From an uncultured Azospirillum sp. (GTDB taxonomy: Bacteria; Pseudomonadota; Alphaproteobacteria; RF32; CAG-239), in contig CAMYUM010000001.1 of NCBI GenBank assembly GCA_947301965.1, positions 95,635 through 159,634 on the forward strand: DNA of 64,000 nucleotides, written 5' to 3'. Below the pieces are notes generated by a model. The model worked only from the letters and a program-made list of their open reading frames with translations. It did no database searches and was not told the origin of the DNA. Position 1 is the first letter of the stretch; every line of letters begins with the position of its first letter. A program made the position numbers and the translations under genes. Shown piece by piece: positions 1 to 54,978 of the stretch.

Positions 1-736
1 GGAGATGGTTTGCGCTTGATGAAGAGAGGTCTTTATGAGAGGTGAATAATTTAAGTAAAGATGAATTTGTTGCCCTAATCATGATTTGCGCGAGAATAAT
101 TCCGCCAAGACCAATGATAGAGCCAACAGTAATCAGTAAAATATTTTGCTGTGCGAATCCGATTGCAACAGAGTTCCAACCGGAAAAAGCGTTGAGAATT
201 GAAATTATAATGGGCATGTCGGCACCGCCGACGGGAAATACCAAAAAAATTCCCCAAAGCAGAGATGAAAAAATTAAAGCCCAAAAATATACAATATCGA
301 AGTGGCGATAAAACATAAATGCAAAATATGCGGTAAGACATAAAAATAAGACGTTGAGGATAATCGGATTTAAAAAACGAAAATCAGGTTTTGATAAAAA
401 TCCCTGCAGTTTACAAAAAGCAACAACAGAGCCGGAAAAAGTTACGGTGCCAACAACGCTTCCGAGAACCAGAGCCGAAGAAAAAATATGTGCGTCACCG
501 ATAGCTATGCAAACGACGGCAGCGCCACCGAGACCATTGAGAAGAGCAACCATTTGCGGCAGTGATGTTATTTTAATTTTTAGACCTAAAAGTATGCCGA
601 CGGCGGCTCCGAAAAAAATTGCCGAAGCCAAATAAATGACGTTTTGAGGAACGGGAACAAAATCAGAAGCAATAGCCAAAAGCATGGCAAAAATACTAAT
701 TTTAGCGCCTAAAGCGGCGGTCTGAGGAGACGCCAT
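1..736 (-). CDS. pntB: NAD(P) transhydrogenase beta subunit PntB, N-terminal membrane domain; gene continues past the left edge of the window
   Basis: Reverse-strand translation from the ATG at 736 gives MASPQTAALGAKISIFAMLLAIAS... and includes ...ADMPIIISILNAFSGWNS..., which matches the PntB membrane-domain MPVVISxLNSYSGW motif. The ORFs at 42..311 and 354..635 are opposite-strand shadows of this gene. Confidence 0.8.
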   Translation of the reverse strand, partial: MASPQTAALGAKISIFAMLLAIASDFVPVPQNVIYLASAIFFGAAVGILLGLKIKITSLPQMVALLNGLGGAAVVCIAIGDAHIFSSALVLGSVVGTVTFSGSVVAFCKLQGFLSKPDFRFLNPIILNVLFLCLTAYFAFMFYRHFDIVYFWALIFSSLLWGIFLVFPVGGADMPIIISILNAFSGWNSVAIGFAQQNILLITVGSIIGLGGIILAQIMIRATNSSLLKLFTSHKDLSSSSANHL

Positions 737-795: not shown

Positions 796-1068
796 TCAAT
801 TTTTAGGCTCCTTTTTTTTGAACATTACAAGCATACGGGAGGAAACAGCAAAGCCGCCGAATATGTTGACGGAGGCAAGAAAAACGGCGAGAAAATTCCA
901 AAAATCAGAGCCGTGTTGGGTTATTGCTCCGATGATAACAATGCCGGATATGGCATTTGAGATACTCATAAAAGGAGAATAAAGAGCCGGCGTTACCCCG
1001 AGAACGACAAAATATCCGATAAAGCACGACAAAACAAAAATTATGAGCAGAATATTGAAATTAATCAT
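796..1068 (-). CDS. pntAB: NAD(P) transhydrogenase alpha subunit part 2 (small membrane subunit)
   Basis: A 90-aa hydrophobic protein sits between pntAA and pntB. It overlaps the pntAA stop by 8 nt, as expected for the split-alpha arrangement. Confidence 0.75.
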   Translation of the reverse strand: MINFNILLIIFVLSCFIGYFVVLGVTPALYSPFMSISNAISGIVIIGAITQHGSDFWNFLAVFLASVNIFGGFAVSSRMLVMFKKKEPKN

Positions 1069-2026
1069 TTTGTTTTTCTCCGATGTAAGTGGCTTTTATA
1101 ATCTCATCTTGAAAATCAAGATTAAAATTTTGAGACGGAAAGTCGTAAATCAAGCGGAAAAAGTTATAGATATTATTGGCAAAAAGACGACTGGCGGAGT
1201 TGGCTGTTTGGGAAGGGAGGTTGTAGCCGCGATAAATGTTGGGCGATGAAATTGAAAAATCAATATTGCCGGAAACATCAACCAAAACGGTTTGTTCGGA
1301 AATGGCGGCAAATTTTGCCGGAGTGATAATAATCGGAGCACGAGGAAAAGACCCGGCGCAAGTTATGATGATGTCATAATCAAAAAAATCGGTCGGAGAA
1401 TCGATAAAAACAGCTCCAACCGATAAAGCCTGCTCTTTAGTTTCGGGGCGGATGTCAGAAACGTAAACCTTGGTTCCAAGACGTTTTGCGGTTGCGGCGG
1501 CCTGAAGCCCGCATACTCCGAGACCTAAAATTAAAACTTTAAGTGGGGGAAGTGTACCTGCAGACGTAATCATCATGGGGGCGCAACGATTGCTTTTGTT
1601 GATTGCCAACAAAGCCGCTTTGTAACCGGCAATATTGTCTTGAGAAGATAAAATATCCATACTCTGAGCTCGTGAAATGCGGGGAATCTGATTGAGGGCA
1701 AAGGCTCGAAAAATGCGGCAGAAAAAATTATCGGTTCGGCGAAAGTCGGCTATAACCAAAGGAGATTTTTTTAACCAGGAACACTCTTGATTTGAAGGTG
1801 CCCAAATTTTAAAAAGGACGTTGCAATCATGGCAAATTTGTTGCGGGGAATCGCAAATTTCAGCTCCGCTTAAACAATATTTTTGATCAAAAAATCCGGC
1901 GGCTAAACCGGCGTTTTTTTCAACGATGATTTGAAGACCGTCAGAGGTAAGTTTTTCTACAATTTCCGGCGTTATCGCAACTCTGTTTTCGTCGGGGGCG
2001 GTTTCTTTTATTACACCTATAAGCAT
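1061..2026 (-). CDS. pntAA: NAD(P) transhydrogenase alpha subunit part 1 (AlaDH/PNT NAD-binding domain)
   Basis: The 321-aa protein starts MLIGVIKETAPDENRVAITPE and carries a Rossmann motif (VLILGLGVCGLQAAATAKRLGTKV), both typical of PntA domain I. Confidence 0.9.
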   Translation of the reverse strand: MLIGVIKETAPDENRVAITPEIVEKLTSDGLQIIVEKNAGLAAGFFDQKYCLSGAEICDSPQQICHDCNVLFKIWAPSNQECSWLKKSPLVIADFRRTDNFFCRIFRAFALNQIPRISRAQSMDILSSQDNIAGYKAALLAINKSNRCAPMMITSAGTLPPLKVLILGLGVCGLQAAATAKRLGTKVYVSDIRPETKEQALSVGAVFIDSPTDFFDYDIIITCAGSFPRAPIIITPAKFAAISEQTVLVDVSGNIDFSISSPNIYRGYNLPSQTANSASRLFANNIYNFFRLIYDFPSQNFNLDFQDEIIKATYIGEKQND

Positions 2027-2107
2027 TTTTTCTCCTGTTTAATAATTGAGAAAGTTTATTTGTATATAATAGCGATAATTGTTTTTGAAACGGAGTGGAA
2101 AATAAAA

Positions 2108-2638
2108 ATGATATTTAAGCTTTTCAGAGCTTTTTTCAAAATCGGATTATTTATGTTCGGAGGCGGTTCGGCAATTATTCCGCTGTTACAGGCAGAATTG
2201 GTCGAGCGCAAAAAATGGCTGAACGAAAAGGAGATTATGGATTATTATTCTATCGGTCAGTGTACCCCCGGAATTATTGCCGTTAATGTTTCTACTTTTA
2301 CAGGGTATAAACTCGGAGGAATTAAAGGAGCGGTGGCGTCAACGCTCGGGGTGATAATGCCGTCGCTGATAATAATTATTATGATTGCGAGCCTGATAAA
2401 TTTGTTTTTGGATAATCAATATGTGATGCACGCTTTTACCGGTATAAGAATTGCGGTGGTAGCATTGATTGCCGATGTGGTTTTGAGTATGGGACGCAAA
2501 AATATTAAGGACAGATATCAGTTTGCTATTTTTGCGGCAGTAGTGATATTGATGTTGGCGTTGTCAATATCTCCGGTGTGGGTAATTTGCGGAGCGGGTG
2601 CTCTGGGGTTGATTTTACGCAGAGGAAAAACAGTATGA
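2108..2638 (+). CDS. chrA: Chromate transporter (CHR) family short-chain protein, half 1
   Basis: It has the FKIGLFMFGGGSAIIPLLQ motif. The ATG at 2108 was chosen because the 1931 start would overlap pntAA on the opposite strand. Confidence 0.7.
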   Translation: MIFKLFRAFFKIGLFMFGGGSAIIPLLQAELVERKKWLNEKEIMDYYSIGQCTPGIIAVNVSTFTGYKLGGIKGAVASTLGVIMPSLIIIIMIASLINLFLDNQYVMHAFTGIRIAVVALIADVVLSMGRKNIKDRYQFAIFAAVVILMLALSISPVWVICGAGALGLILRRGKTV

Positions 2639-13037: not shown

Positions 13038-13114
13038 GCGCTCGTAGCTCAATTGGATAGAGCATCTGACTACGGATCAGAAGGTTGTGAGTTCGAATCC
13101 CGCCGAGCGCGCCA
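13038..13114 (+). tRNA. tRNA-Arg (anticodon ACG)
   Basis: A cloverleaf can be drawn by hand: acceptor gcgctcg/cgagcgc, anticodon stem tctga/tcaga with loop ctACGga, T-loop ttcgaat, and an encoded CCA. The T-stem has one A-C mismatch. Confidence 0.85.
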
Positions 13115-13166
13115 GTTTTTAATCGAGGCTCCACCATTAAAGGTGGGGTTTTGTGTTTTTAAAGGT

Positions 13167-13303
13167 GGCGGTTTTCGAACTCGTGAGTTCGTTCAATTCC
13201 GGCTAAAGATTTTGTTTCACTTCGATATCTCTCGTTCACAAAATCAAGCCTCATTGTGTCTCCTTGAAAAAACTGCATTATGGCAGTTTTTTTCTTCGGC
13301 CAT
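13167..13303. repeat. Roughly 137-nt element inserted downstream of tRNA-Arg(ACG), flanked by a 67-bp direct duplication (13100..13166 and 13304..13370) of the tRNA 3' end plus terminator; copy 1 of 2 in the window
   Basis: The string ccgccgagcgcgcca plus the terminator hairpin (ccaccattaaaggtgg, T-run) is exactly repeated. The insert begins with the palindrome cgaactcgtgagttcg, built from the tRNA T-arm. It ends in a roughly 60-nt block that is almost identical to the insert next to tRNA-Arg(CCG) at 54209..54347. Confidence 0.8.
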
Positions 13304-13433
13304 CCGCCGAGCGCGCCAGTTTTTAATCGAGGCTCCACCATTAAAGGTGGGGTTTTGTGTTTTTAAAGGTTGTAGTTTTTAATTTTCAGATGATACAAAT
13401 TTGGAGTATGATTCAGCTAAACATAATTTCCTT

Positions 13434-33173: not shown

Positions 33174-33193
33174 AATCAAGATTTTAAGAAAAA

Positions 33194-33222
33194 TACCGGA
33201 GCGTTCCGGTATTTTTTTTGCC
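33194..33222 (+). terminator. Terminator after the channel gene
   Basis: Hairpin accggagcgttccggt followed by a T8 run. Confidence 0.6.
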
Positions 33223-33229
33223 TAAAAAC

Positions 33230-33258
33230 TTGACTTTGAAAAAAACAATCACTAACTA
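33230..33258 (+). promoter_or_regulatory. Candidate groESL promoter
   Basis: TTGACT, a 17-nt spacer, then TAACTA. The -35 region is embedded in cTTGACTTTGAA, which resembles the CTTGAA heat-shock -35 also seen upstream of grpE. Confidence 0.35.
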
Positions 33259-33292
33259 AAGTATAGCAAAATTTTATAGGAGTTTAAAGGCT

Positions 33293-45975: not shown

Positions 45976-46100
45976 AAAGGCCGACCGGCGTTCTTCCGCC
46001 CGCCTTTCGCTTGTAGTCGAACCATCTTTCTCGAGGGTTCTCATCGTCCACCCACAATTCAACAACAAAAAAAACCACCATAAAGGTGGTTTTTTGTTAT

Positions 46101-46175
46101 TGGAGCGGGTGAAGGGATTCGAACCCTCGACATCAACCTTGGCAAGGTTGCGCTCTACCCCTGAGCTACGCCCGC
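46101..46175 (-). tRNA. tRNA-Gly (anticodon GCC)
   Basis: The reverse complement reads gcgggcgtagctcaggggtagagcgcaaccttGCCaaggttgatgtcgagggttcgaatcccttcacccgctcca. One C-A mismatch falls in the acceptor stem. A terminator hairpin (46074..46091) lies downstream. Confidence 0.85.
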
Positions 46176-53958: not shown

Positions 53959-54095
53959 AATTCTAATCCTTGAAAAACTAAACTTGTTGCCAGTTAATAG
54001 ACATTTTATAAATAAAAGTCAAGAATTATTTATGAAATTTAAAAAAAATGTGGCTTTAAATGTTTTTTAAGGATAATAATAACTCTGTTGAAAAT

Positions 54096-54172
54096 GTACC
54101 CGTAGCTCAGCTGGATAGAGCGTTGGCCTCCGACGCCAAAGGTCGTGGGTTCGAACCCCTCCGGGTACGCCA
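54096..54172 (+). tRNA. tRNA-Arg (anticodon CCG)
   Basis: Acceptor gtacccg/cgggtac, anticodon loop ctCCGac, T-loop ttcgaac and an encoded CCA. The T-stem has one U-U mismatch. Confidence 0.85.
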
Positions 54173-54208
54173 TTTTTAAAAAAAGCCCTGTGTTTAACAG
54201 GGCTTTTT

Positions 54209-54347
54209 GCGTTCCGTCGGGGCGAACCCAGGGTTCGTTCAATTCCGACTATATCTTTTGTTGTGCTTCGATTTCATCTCGCCAACAAAAGAAAGTCTCA
54301 TTGTGTCTCCTTGAAAAAACTGCATTAGAGCAGTTTTTTCTTCGGCC
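54209..54347. repeat. Roughly 139-nt element inserted downstream of tRNA-Arg(CCG), flanked by a 52-bp direct duplication (54157..54208 and 54348..54399) of the tRNA 3' end plus terminator; copy 2 of 2
   Basis: ccctccgggtacgcca plus the terminator tttttaaaaaagccctgtgtttaacagggctttttg is exactly repeated. The insert begins with the palindrome cgaacccagggttcg, built from this tRNA's T-arm. It shares gttcgttcaattccg and the terminal block ctcattgtgtctccttgaaaaaactgcatta.agcagtttttt.cttcggcca with copy 1. Confidence 0.8.
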
Positions 54348-54405
54348 ACCCTCCGGGTACGCCATTTTTAAAAAAGCCCTGTGTTTAACAGGGCTTTTTG
54401 TGAAT

Positions 54406-54978
54406 TTAATCTTCCGGGCTTTCTTCCTCAAAAACCGGCTTGTCCGGTGTTTTTTCCTGACTGGGTTGATTGTCGCCGAAGAGCATATTTCCGATTTGAG
54501 TTAAGGCACCATCAAGCATTTTGCCGACATCAGGTCCTTGAGTTGCCGTTTCGGTGGTAGGAGTTTCGGTTTCAGCCGGAGTGTTGTTTTTTTCAGTGCC
54601 AAAAAGTTTATTAAACTGGTTTATGGCTTTGTTTAGAAGAGAAACTTTTTCCTCACAGGTTTTGGTTTCTTTGTTCCAAACACCGCCGGATTGTTCGCAC
54701 TTTCTGATTTCACGGGTCGAATATTGATAGTACATGTAATATCCGCCACCTAAAAGTGCGGCAATTACAAACAAAATTACCATATAACGTGCTATTATCC
54801 AAAATATCCACAGACCTGCAATGCCAAAGAAAATAAGTTTGTTGGTCCAGGTGGGGTCCCACATATAAGCCTTGGCGGCAAAAAATGCGGTGGCAACGGC
54901 AAAAATCATATTGACCGGTGAAAACAAAAATGCTTTGAAAAAGCGCTTGATTATTCCGGGTTTGGTTCCTTCGCTCAT
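54406..54978 (-). CDS. Hypothetical membrane protein
   Basis: A 190-aa protein with three or four TM helices, a Cys-containing loop (CEQSGGVWNKETKTCEEK) and an acidic C-terminus. Confidence 0.45.
   Translation of the reverse strand: MSEGTKPGIIKRFFKAFLFSPVNMIFAVATAFFAAKAYMWDPTWTNKLIFFGIAGLWIFWIIARYMVILFVIAALLGGGYYMYYQYSTREIRKCEQSGGVWNKETKTCEEKVSLLNKAINQFNKLFGTEKNNTPAETETPTTETATQGPDVGKMLDGALTQIGNMLFGDNQPSQEKTPDKPVFEEESPED

Follow-up and report, generated by a model that had tools for sequence, protein, structure and literature searches.

The tRNA-Arg(CCG) gene that opens this locus is intact, and it is followed on the same strand by a terminator, a 139-nt insert and a second, partial copy of its own 3′ end, all lying where the first-pass annotation had placed them. 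Coordinates refer to the window, that is, to the whole stretch of 64,000 nucleotides that was analysed, and the features of the locus are as follows:

54096..54172, + strand: tRNA-Arg(CCG), intact (ARAGORN; Rfam tRNA, 65.3 bits)
54157..54209, + strand: proximal repeat, 53 nt, with the T-stem 3′ strand, the acceptor 3′ strand, CCA and a terminator hairpin (repeat families D1/D2, inverted repeat I6)
54180-54208, + strand: terminator hairpin inside the proximal repeat
54210-54348, + strand: insert, 139 nt
54215..54237, + strand: “pal”, a degenerate inverted host T-arm (cgtcggggcgaaccc) followed by a forward half, a-gggttcg (sequence; repeat D5; other tRNA lineages; folds)
54223-54237, + strand: palindrome cgaaccc-a-gggttcg
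54238..54347, + strand: core “I”, conserved, non-coding, 110 nt (covariance model R1, 132.9 bits, E 1.3e-25; alignment)
54240..54303, + strand: long hairpin of the core, three helices (16 pairs, 100% paired in 10 copies; three pairs changed on both sides)
54297..54323, + strand: invariant block CTCATTGTGTCTCCTTGAAAAAACTGC, the same in every copy, including L013 and L015
54313..54340, + strand: terminator-like hairpin of the core, with an A run, a 4-bp G+C stem and a T run (inverted repeat I9; helix 4, 98% paired)
54349..54400, + strand: distal repeat, 52 nt, a partial tRNA 3′ end plus terminator (the orthologous flank starts directly after it; compare the empty site L031)

The final 16 nt of the tRNA are part of the proximal repeat, and the native terminator of the empty site L031 is a homologue of the one in this repeat. 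The duplication had been described as an exact 52-bp repeat, and a repeat is indeed present, but it is not exact: its copies measure 53 and 52 nt and consist of 27 and 25 identical bases on either side of an A run that counts 7 A in one copy and 6 in the other. Together with the A that precedes it (54348), the distal copy reads accctcc, one C fewer than the acccctcc of the tRNA. Within the insert, the pal forms a 6-bp hairpin (cgaacc/ggttcg) that appears in the predicted folds, and the invariant block reads CUCCUU on the + strand and AAGGAG-N6-ATG on the − strand. The copies L013 and L015, where this block is also found, were located through a neighbouring gene and hence independently of the motif. 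Owing to its symmetry, the terminator-like hairpin of the core would function on either strand.

The 447-nt intergenic region that contains the insert (53959-54405) was recovered with zero differences in four contigs from other samples (three from JGI, one from ENA), on which the neighbouring protein is 99%, not 100%, identical to that of the window; the locus is therefore not an assembly artefact, and the duplication proposed earlier exists in independent assemblies. Two Logan contigs terminate at the repeat.

The same layout is found at a second arginine tRNA gene, and a related module lies next to a glycine tRNA gene:

13038..13114, + strand: tRNA-Arg(ACG), host of the sister copy (ARAGORN; Rfam)
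13100..13166, + strand: proximal repeat of the sister copy, exact, 67 nt
13167..13191, + strand: pal of the sister copy, ggcggttttcgaactc g tgagttcg (14/18 against the reverse complement of the T-arm, p about 0)
13192..13301, + strand: core I of the sister copy (R1, 126.2 bits)
13304..13370, + strand: distal repeat of the sister copy, exact, 67 nt
45979..46053, − strand: module of a second family, I2, 3′ of tRNA-Gly(GCC) (pal 46053-46017, truncated core 46016-45979)

The two cores are 81% identical over 110 nt, and the similarity extends well beyond the aactgc...gcagtt hairpin to which, as had been feared, it might have been restricted. A covariance model of the core finds just these two copies in the window, with E values of about 1e-24 to 1e-25; a weak match at 33182-33287 proved to be an ordinary intergenic region. 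The 27-mer CTCATTGTGTCTCCTTGAAAAAACTGC occurs twice in the window against 0.00 occurrences expected, and GTTCGTTCAATTCCG occurs twice against 0.23 expected, and a chance origin of the shared sequence is excluded. Nor is the core a plain terminator repeated at many sites, since it comprises a 64-nt hairpin with covariation, and the terminator hairpin alone yields matches of only ~20 bits. Each of the two copies is nearer to copies at the matching tRNA in other genomes, which indicates that they are not recent copies of each other. As for the tRNA-Gly(GCC) module, it agrees at 20/22 positions with the opening of the I2 core of L023; the 3′ end of tRNA-Gly occurs only once in the window, so that this module has no distal tRNA-end repeat.

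The core is structured, constrained and non-coding. It is made up of three hairpins backed by compensatory changes: its 26 pairs are 99.2% paired, and three of them have changed on both sides (13 cells). Its covariation score was not equalled in any of 500 shuffles, and only 39-52% of pairs form in slid controls. The compensatory changes all lead from one Watson-Crick pair to another, with no G-U intermediates. The loop of the hairpin varies in length by 1-2 nt among copies, which breaks any reading frame in the core, and a coding function on the − strand was rejected as well: an AAGGAG-N6-ATG is present there, but the ORF-like stretch of 20-31 codons shifts frame between copies. The last four bases at the right end of the core vary (TTCG, TGCG, CGCG, TTTA). 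Fold z-scores of the unit are −8.6 as DNA and −5.3 and −5.9 as RNA. The suggestion that the insert might fold like a tRNA or a tmRNA found no support, as neither ARAGORN, which gave no tmRNA, nor Rfam reports anything inside it. At the gathering threshold, Rfam returned only four tRNAs for the whole window, and its E-value mode, applied to both copies, the tRNA-Gly flank and L023, gave tRNAs plus terminator noise far under the gathering scores. A cloverleaf-like closing stem is present in the minimum free energy fold of the + strand and absent from the centroid structure. No promoter-like site was found on the + strand inside or just upstream of the insert, and a weak promoter match on the − strand is confined to the CCG subtype and is not conserved.

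The left end of the insert follows the host tRNA, as the first-pass annotation had noticed: an inverted cognate T-arm comes first, and then the forward T-stem 5′ strand plus TTCG. In the Arg-ACG and Lys copies, the pal agrees with the reverse-complemented host T-arm at 14-16 of 18 positions (p about 0 vs shuffles). The inverted T-arm of the CCG copy is the weakest of the family, with 10/18 matches ungapped and about 14/18 when a 2-nt gap is allowed. The base matching tRNA position 52 and its hairpin partner switch with the tRNA in all six lineages compared (core I at ACG, CCG and Lys; core I2 at ACG, Lys and Gly).

Beyond the window, core I was matched 13 times (11 matches are full, and contig ends truncate the other 2), and these represent 10 distinct genomes or strains, a count that treats the four identical assemblies L026-L029 as one. 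All these matches come from rumen alphaproteobacterial MAGs, and all lie at tRNA-Arg(ACG), tRNA-Arg(CCG) or tRNA-Lys(UUU). What had been proposed to be one element at two tRNA-Arg genes is thus a shared 110-nt core that recurs at both of them in other genomes and has a third host tRNA. A 25-mer of the core is present in 5 of 185,579 species-representative genomes, all five being MAGs of rumen Alphaproteobacteria/“Rhodospirillales”, and within each MAG the core matches are confined to 1-2 contigs. Sites hold one to four tandem units, which in L004 repeat with a 188-nt period. The joints are alike at the three tRNAs (left, GTTCG/TTCAATTCC; right, ...GCC/A[TC]CC, the stroke marking the joint), and the unrelated second core, I2, adopts the same architecture at Arg-ACG, Lys and Gly; at tRNA-Arg(ACG) alone, tiny structured inserts of at least three kinds occur.

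In all lineages, the repeat reaches from the T-loop or the T-stem 3′ strand to CCA. In five of them (L005, L006, L011, L015 and L023) nothing but the tRNA 3′ end is repeated, over 17-19 nt from T-loop to CCA, and the terminator on the proximal side is unlike the distal one; L006 and L015, with flanks about 97% identical, even have the two terminator types in opposite places. A repeat restricted to the tRNA end and flanked by differing terminators is the mark that site-specific integration leaves as attL/attR. A larger island at L011 was rejected, since the 10 kb examined there contain no other copy of the tRNA-Lys end. L013 and L001 end in ggccatccgac followed by unrelated flank, and lack the tRNA-end repeat. 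A larger island may lie beyond the small unit in L023-L025.

Comparisons between related genomes demonstrate empty and occupied orthologous sites, reproducibility across assemblies, polymorphism in unit number and discordance between units and flanks. The CCG locus of L031 is empty: the tRNA, its terminator (homologous to that of the window) and the orthologous flank are there, but pal, core and repeat are all missing, and the window differs from it by exactly one additional unit of 191-192 nt; the ACG locus is likewise empty in L016 and L017. L002 carries about three units more than L012, with flanks 98-99.5% identical, although the L002 array may have been collapsed in the L012 assembly. The 180-nt units of L002 and L006 are 93.3% identical and their host flanks 74.8%, whereas between L002 and L013 the flanks are 83.8% identical and the units only 86.7%. 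Across genomes, core copies group by tRNA type, which implies that jumps between different tRNAs are old or rare.

The explanation that we prefer, with moderate confidence, is that these units of ~190-210 bp form a family of gene-less integrative modules, each about the size of an attP site and moved by a recombinase supplied in trans. Such a unit would comprise a tRNA 3′ end, running from T-loop to CCA, that replaces the host's and brings a terminator of its own; an inverted cognate T-arm whose hairpin is closed by the forward T-stem 5′ strand plus TTCG; the conserved 110-nt core with its three hairpins; and a GCC-A joint, next to which lies the original tRNA 3′ end in its displaced position. 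As a circle, the unit would undergo site-specific recombination with the tRNA gene within the T-loop or immediately 3′ of it, and since the incoming tRNA end completes the gene, the tRNA would remain functional. The original end and its terminator would be shifted downstream to become the distal repeat. New units would enter at the tRNA, so that older ones are pushed distally and decay, and recombination between the repeated tRNA ends would add or remove units. This last process would also homogenise the terminators, which would account for the 52-67-nt identical repeats of the window. Homologous recombination alone could also produce much of the present-day variation, which counts against the reading. 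We infer a circular intermediate and a crossover near the T-loop, and the recombinase, necessarily supplied in trans, would be a tyrosine integrase preferring that loop. The pal and the core may serve as a recombination scaffold, or the core may additionally encode a small RNA. The one-C deletion, present in the distal and not in the proximal tRNA end, would place the crossover towards the extreme 3′ end of the tRNA, unless the distal copy is the one borne by the element. Several points speak against this reading: the standard attL/attR model predicts neither the inverted T-arm nor a core placed precisely in the T-loop of another partial T-arm, the one-C deletion lies on the distal side, L013 and L001 have no tRNA-end repeat, cores group by tRNA type, and neither a recombinase gene beside the copies nor a larger parent element was found.

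The use of partial tRNA genes as attR of integrated elements is a general phenomenon (PMC9897764). As in tRNA-targeting prophages, islands, ICEs and IMEs, the unit inserts in the 3′ part of a tRNA and its replacement end keeps the gene intact, the displaced end stays as a direct repeat from T-loop to CCA, units accrete in tandem at the tRNA, and relatives have empty sites. However, those elements are roughly 5-100 kb long, whereas the unit measures 190-210 bp, is gene-free and has no integrase in cis; moreover, it contains an inverted T-arm and places its body inside the T-loop of a second partial T-arm, and its repeat runs through the terminator in some genomes. Williams is said to have described, in 2002, a T-loop sublocation class among tRNA-targeting tyrosine integrases. 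Another parallel is offered by the CIMEs, cis-mobilizable elements flanked by att sites and without recombination genes, described for the ICESt1/ICESt3 family. Like them, the unit is non-autonomous, is bounded by att-type repeats, presumably relies on an integrase in trans, and can form tandem arrays with related elements; but CIMEs extend over several kilobases, bear genes and are recognisably ICE-derived, while the unit is about one attP in size with no parent known.

The search for a recombinase gene within or beside the copies yielded none, their neighbours being housekeeping genes. In particular, Pfam detected no integrase among 10 candidate ORFs of the window and no integrase or transposase in the ORFs flanking L011, L015 and L023, and the ORFs adjoining L002 and L004 are housekeeping or unrelated. 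Core patterns gave 0 matches in viral contigs, distant-mode blastn against phage and plasmid collections gave no match and no larger parent element, and a full-text literature search found no description of such units.

The first alternative, an unlikely one in our opinion, is that the insert is a resident, non-mobile sRNA gene of the host, transcribed from the + strand downstream of the tRNAs, with a 5′ hairpin, a single-stranded CUCCUU as anti-Shine-Dalgarno seed and an intrinsic terminator, its repeats having arisen by local tandem duplication and been kept alike by concerted evolution through unequal crossing-over. The layout is certainly sRNA-like, and the most conserved block is precisely the single-stranded stretch plus the terminator stem. 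Copies that group by tRNA locus rather than by genome, repeats identical within a genome and different between genomes, a native type of terminator in the CCG unit and the lack of a nearby recombinase would all be expected from a resident gene. It would nonetheless have to do without a promoter-like site on its strand, and the identical T-loop joints at three tRNAs, shared even with an unrelated second core, are hard to reconcile with local duplication, as are the five lineages with a tRNA-end-limited repeat and differing terminators, the empty sites in related genomes, and unit identities discordant with those of the flanks. Known Hfq-type sRNAs of islands and prophages resemble the unit in their 5′ hairpin, single-stranded CUCCUU, intrinsic terminator and linkage to tRNAs and horizontally acquired DNA, but the unit has no promoter match and no Rfam family, and the “island” would here be the sRNA gene alone. 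An sRNA is compatible with a mobile gene-less module if it is the cargo of the element.

Quite improbable is a mechanism involving a single strand of DNA or RNA, in which the inverted T-arm would pair with the split forward T-arm (A ... B*) and rebuild the target duplex, leaving the core bulged at the crossover, or in which the inverted T-arm would be a guide for tRNA specificity. In its fullest and equally doubtful form, the ~190-nt unit would be a self-contained substrate that recombines as a folded single strand, its inverted T-arm serving as a copy or guide of the target that can be rewritten and would set the tRNA entered, much as in the CTXφ attP hairpin, integron attC sites or guide-directed recombinases. 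Such a mechanism explains why an inverted T-arm co-varying with the tRNA lies one terminator-length from the tRNA end, and it agrees with a unit in which every segment is a hairpin, with its fold z-scores for DNA and RNA, and with compensatory changes that all go from Watson-Crick to Watson-Crick pairs. The order of hybrid site, spacer, inverted site, body and hybrid site reportedly mirrors that of integrated CTXφ. However, the part of the pal facing the T-stem 3′ strand is degenerate in L005 and in the ACG and CCG copies of the window, the distal tRNA end is one base out of register with the pal, there is no sign of a single-stranded form, of a Rep/HUH protein or of a helper phage, and only three pairs covary, too few to separate DNA from RNA.

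Precedents for folded substrates are the attP(+) hairpin of CTXφ, used by XerCD, and the integron attC sites, used by IntI, both of which recombine as folded single strands; Val et al. are said to have described the CTXφ attP(+) hairpin, and the site order after integration, in 2005. The unit shares with them imperfect inverted repeats able to fold as a duplex target, arrays of small units and the order of sites. It differs in targeting a tRNA T-arm instead of dif or attI, in having no GTTRRRY core sites, in the absence of integron integrase and filamentous-phage genes among those seen, and in that its single-stranded form is hypothetical. A true integron attC was rejected, since the TTCGAAC...GTTCGTT of the pal misfits the RYYYAAC/GTTRRRY consensus and the loci contain no integrase.

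A reading in two layers seems to us more doubtful still: a T-loop-specific insertion element (core I or I2) would have survived only in a dispensable partial T-arm, and the tRNA-end duplication with its inverted T-arm would be an older landing pad of separate origin. The core is indeed joined on both sides to T-loop sequence of the distal partial T-arm (TTCG/core/A(A)TCC), two unrelated cores occupy the same position, and L002 has one core-free unit, which reads gagttcg/gcc/atccgcc. Yet apart from that single L002 unit the pad is always accompanied by a core, the cores have neither terminal inverted repeats nor target duplications, no transposase was found, and the GCC-A joint and the one-C deletion are common to three tRNA lineages and thus travel with the core.

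Like MITEs, REPINs and elements derived from IS200/IS605, the unit is small, non-coding, hairpin-rich and non-autonomous. Unlike them, it has no terminal inverted repeats of the usual kind, is present in one to few copies per genome instead of tens to hundreds, strictly at tRNA 3′ ends, and is flanked by a direct repeat that is a 17-67-nt tRNA end and not a short target duplication. A MITE was accordingly rejected, the core ends (TTCAATTCC... and ...CTTCGGCC) not being inverted repeats and only two copies occurring in 64 kb. With respect to IS200/IS605 and REPINs, TTCG precedes every left joint, and the right end has a hairpin 6-10 nt away; the hairpins are dissimilar, copies are few, and among the loci examined none showed an HUH gene.

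Finally, it is very improbable that the units are what remains of large prophages or genomic islands whose interior was deleted, leaving decayed att sites: integration classically occurs at tRNA 3′ ends, which gather partial tRNA copies (PMC9897764), and L023-L025 possibly carry a larger island, but a 110-nt core with the same ends and compensatory changes is kept in 10 genomes or strains at three tRNAs, whereas independent deletions would not yield an identical conserved core, and there are no coding remnants and no matches in phage or plasmid collections. Other origins were rejected: fold-back replication at the terminator would also have reverse-copied the acceptor and CCA, which is not seen; an inversion between T-arms predicts other junctions; reverse transcription of the pre-tRNA 3′ end has no supporting reverse transcriptase, and the terminators differ in most genomes; and a CRISPR-like repeat duplication fits poorly.

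If these units are indeed gene-less integrative modules, the lower size limit of integrative mobile DNA would drop to an attachment site plus a structured 110-nt core, in an element that survives by rebuilding the very tRNA gene it has entered, and the units would offer a minimal natural substrate for the choice of site by tRNA-targeting recombinases. The host-tracking inverted T-arm, which attL/attR models do not predict, could indicate recognition of the target by a folded strand or in a guide-like manner; were the folded-strand reading true, this would be the smallest integrating element known, with a sequence-programmable tRNA specificity. The 3′ flanks of tRNA genes in small-genome Alphaproteobacteria of the gut and rumen become hot spots for tiny structured inserts, and the partial tRNA copies and tandem repeats that these units create break short-read assemblies and may mislead tRNA annotation.

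The two window copies, at tRNA-Arg(CCG) and tRNA-Arg(ACG), are built around a common module that we call core I, and a remnant of a similar unit with a second, unrelated core (I2) lies at a tRNA-Gly gene.

Features in the window (basis in brackets)
54096-54172: tRNA-Arg(CCG) (ARAGORN, Rfam)
54157-54209: proximal repeat of the CCG copy, comprising T-stem 3′ strand, acceptor 3′ strand, CCA and terminator hairpin (sequence, repeat finder)
54180-54208: terminator hairpin within the CCG proximal repeat (repeat finder)
54210-54348: CCG insert, 139 nt (sequence, repeat finder)
54223-54237: palindrome cgaaccc-a-gggttcg of the CCG insert
54349-54400: distal repeat of the CCG copy (second occurrence of the 54157-54209 sequence)
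13038-13114: tRNA-Arg(ACG), host of the sister copy
13100-13166 and 13304-13370: exact 67-nt repeat of the sister copy
13192-13301 (ACG) and 54238-54347 (CCG): core I, 110 nt (alignment of both loci)
46053-45979, minus strand: truncated I2 module, downstream of tRNA-Gly(GCC) (46101-46175)

The first-pass annotation had described the CCG repeat as an exact 52-bp copy of the tRNA end and terminator. The duplication stands and its exactness does not: the two copies measure 53 and 52 nt, and stretches of 27 and 25 identical bases are separated by an A run that differs in length by one base. That both tRNA-Arg genes carry the same element holds: the 110 nt of core I are 81% identical between the ACG and CCG copies, a similarity which on alignment reaches far beyond the aactgc...gcagtt hairpin. 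The core starts with TTCAATTCCG immediately 3′ of GTTCG and ends in ...CTTCGGCC, and the match counts of shared motifs in the window (2 against 0.00 expected, and 2 against 0.23 expected) exclude chance as their origin. Apart from the small repeat correction, the CCG observation is confirmed, and the interpretation first given to it is supported and extended.

The duplication recurs in independent assemblies. A 99%-identical variant of the downstream protein (54406-54978, minus strand) is found on contigs of three JGI samples and one ENA sample, and the 447-nt intergenic region of all four contigs is identical to window positions 53959-54405. Two Logan short-read contigs (L007 and L008, from SRR22585850; L-numbers denote loci of other genomes or contigs) end at the repeat, as is expected of repeated sequence; they break off in or beside the tRNA/repeat region, about 35-175 nt short of the genes on either side of the CCG unit. 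The units break assemblies, and their number in MAGs is probably underestimated.

Empty sites were found for both loci. In L031, whose neighbouring protein is 79% identical to that of the window, tRNA-Arg(CCG) and a homologous terminator lead into the orthologous flank (aattttattcttc...), and the CCG intergenic region holds no palindrome, core or repeat; this site being empty, the CCG locus of the window is longer by exactly one unit, of 191-192 nt. The ACG locus is empty in L016 and L017, and since the tRNA T-arm there is identical to that of the window, the inverted T-arm is part of the insert rather than of the native tRNA flank. In the T-stem of each window tRNA-Arg gene (13086-13102 and 54144-54160) one pair is not Watson-Crick, A52-C62 in ACG and U50-U64 in CCG; because the former is also present at L016, and L031 carries U50-C64, these mismatches are native and not by-products of insertion.

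A core 25-mer turned up at 6 loci in 5 of 185,579 species-representative genomes, all five being rumen MAGs labelled Alphaproteobacteria or uncultured Rhodospirillales; one further locus came from a metagenome scan, and more were reached through the lipoprotein gene next to the unit. Wherever the upstream side of a copy is visible, a tRNA gene lies directly before it, for Arg(ACG), Arg(CCG) or Lys(UUU). Searches of viral contigs, phage genomes and plasmids gave nothing resembling the core. The element is real and confined to one lineage.

Across these loci, a unit runs from a tRNA 3′ end (T-loop to CCA) through a terminator, the palindrome, core I and GCC-A to the next tRNA 3′ end. The palindrome consists of the inverted cognate T-arm followed by the forward T-stem 5′ strand and TTCG, with a 6-bp hairpin between the halves; in the tRNA-Lys locus L003 it reads ggcgggattcgaaccc, the exact reverse complement of tRNA-Lys gggttcgaatcccgcc. 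Compared with the T-arm reverse complement, 14-16 of 18 positions match at ACG and Lys (p about 0), and in the CCG copy only 10 of 18 match without gaps, rising to about 14 of 18 when a 2-nt gap is allowed. The core falls exactly in the T-loop of a further, incomplete T-arm (...G[A/G]GTTCG, core, GCC-A[T/C]CC[G/T]CC-acceptor-CCA), and the T-stem 3′ strand of the distal tRNA end is one C short in each of the three tRNA lineages.

Core I is a structured, non-coding module. A four-helix structure, tested on ten distinct copies, has a standard pair in 99.2% of cells, with 3 pairs (G-C/A-U, G-C/U-A, A-U/C-G) and 13 cells changed on both sides; its covariation score was reached by none of 500 shuffles, and slid 3′ partners, used as a control, gave 39-52% pairing. 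Three of the helices together make up one long hairpin in three parts, and the remaining helix is a hairpin resembling a terminator. The compensatory change GACT/AGTC in L013 falls within the ACG subtype, independently of the subfamily split, and the block CTCATTGTGTCTCCTTGAAAAAACTGC is invariant, including in L013 and L015, which were found by other means than that motif. Loop lengths vary by 1-2 nt among copies, so that a small minus-strand ORF starting at AAGGAG-N6-ATG is not conserved. The tRNA- or tmRNA-like nature raised at first pass was not borne out, as the insert and core gave neither an Rfam family match nor an ARAGORN tRNA/tmRNA call. Folding z-scores were -5.3 for plus-strand RNA, -5.9 for minus-strand RNA and -8.6 for the whole unit as DNA, and the sole strand-informative mismatch in core I, in L002, is C-A on the plus strand and G-U on the minus strand.

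The same layout occurs around the other core. At L023-L025, tRNA-Arg(ACG) is followed by a terminator, a palindrome (ggcggatttgaactcac-aaaaa-gtgagttcga), a G+C-rich I2 core unrelated to core I (ctacaagcgagaggc...gtcgcggac), a perfect 19-nt copy of the tRNA end and a different terminator. L003 is a tandem accretion of two different mini-elements: behind its core-I unit lies a second insert of the I2 family (1893-2035), which has a palindrome (agaacccac gaaaaa gtgggttcga) and a partial tRNA-Lys end of its own as well as a third terminator. The truncated I2 module of the window opens with a palindrome that corresponds to the T-arm of tRNA-Gly and continues into a core start, ctacaagcgaaaggcgggcggaagaacgccggtcggcc, identical at 20 of 22 positions to that of the L023 I2 core at tRNA-Arg(ACG); the window holds no distal repeat of the tRNA-Gly 3′ end. 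Since unrelated cores share one layout, the architecture is due to a mechanism and not to one sequence family.

The element is probably mobile, or was so recently. In L005, L006, L011 and L015 (core I) and in L023 (I2), the direct repeat is the T-loop-to-CCA tRNA end only (17-19 nt), and the proximal and distal terminators are unlike in sequence. This is the classical attL/attR picture, in which the element brings a tRNA end and a terminator of its own. L006 and L015, with flanks about 97% identical, have two terminator types in opposite positions, an arrangement that follows readily if units, each with its own terminator, are gained and lost. The flanks of L002 and L012 are 98-99.5% identical; the L012 array is tRNA, terminator, palindrome and decayed core, and L002 has about three additional units between the tRNA and this same decayed core. 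With the extra units on the tRNA side of the remnant, new units enter at the tRNA. Tandem units with a 188-nt period occur in L004, and unit and host-flank identities disagree, the 180-nt unit being 93.3% identical between L002 and L006 and the host flank 74.8%, against 86.7% and 83.8% between L002 and L013. The 52-67-nt repeats of the window take in the terminator, which in the CCG unit is of the native type, as at the empty site L031; such long repeats fit a recent unit duplication, or homogenisation through recombination between repeats.

The units of the L002 array (1900-2300, minus strand) are of three kinds: a unit that has lost a large internal part (ttataaccccc/cggcc), an intact unit and a unit from which the core is precisely absent (gagttcg/gcc/atccgcc); the old decayed core comes after them; this complexity could partly reflect repeat assembly. 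L013 (1030-1040) and L001 (5485-5500), of different core subtypes, both end in ggccatccgac, followed by unrelated flank with no tRNA-end repeat; the motif could mark the right end proper to the element, or else be what both copies retain of the T-stem 3′ strand.

The best-supported reading, to which we give about an even chance, is a gene-less, attP-sized integrative module that would be moved by a recombinase acting in trans and would recombine with a specific tRNA gene in its 3′ part; copy number would then be tuned by recombination between repeated tRNA ends. No recombinase was found in or near any copy or among ten candidate window ORFs, so that the trans step is inferred. A plain integrase model does not account for the inverted T-arm, for the placing of the core in a second T-loop, for the loss of one C from the distal end, for the L002 unit that lacks a core or for the L013/L001 copies ending beside unrelated DNA. 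A resident sRNA gene with local duplication is an unlikely alternative reading, and one compatible with an integrative module if the sRNA is cargo. A folded single-strand or guide-like site is quite unlikely, T-loop-specific insertion into a landing pad is improbable, and scars of large islands are very improbable.

For the integrative module, known systems offer partial parallels. Identity blocks from T-loop to 3′ end are typical of one tRNA-targeting integrase class, as Williams reportedly described in 2002, and the CIMEs of streptococci are att-flanked and integrase-less. Partial tRNA copies are common as attR sites of 9-23-kb elements (PMC9897764). The units resemble tRNA-targeting integrative elements and CIMEs in their att logic, but are one to two orders of magnitude smaller, lack any gene and carry an inverted copy of the target. 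By the defining tests they are neither MITEs nor integron cassettes, nor members of any Rfam family. A full-text literature search of limited extent, which is not proof of novelty, found no description of such units.

Past the distal tRNA end of L023-L025 (170-900 in locus coordinates) lie small genes, including one for a DUF3768 protein and one with a weak HTH match, and L024 has an IS1-type transposase gene beyond the queried gene, on the side away from the tRNA. A larger island, running on past the end of the flank analysed, may be stacked behind this mini-element. In the more distant relatives L018 (about 1000-1215, minus strand) and L019 (about 130-335, minus strand), unrelated 120-130-nt inserts lie behind tRNA-Arg(ACG), bounded by two terminator-hairpin copies only, with neither tRNA-end repeat nor inverted T-arm. 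Within the clade, the 3′ flank of tRNA-Arg(ACG) seems to act generally as a hot spot where small inserts settle.
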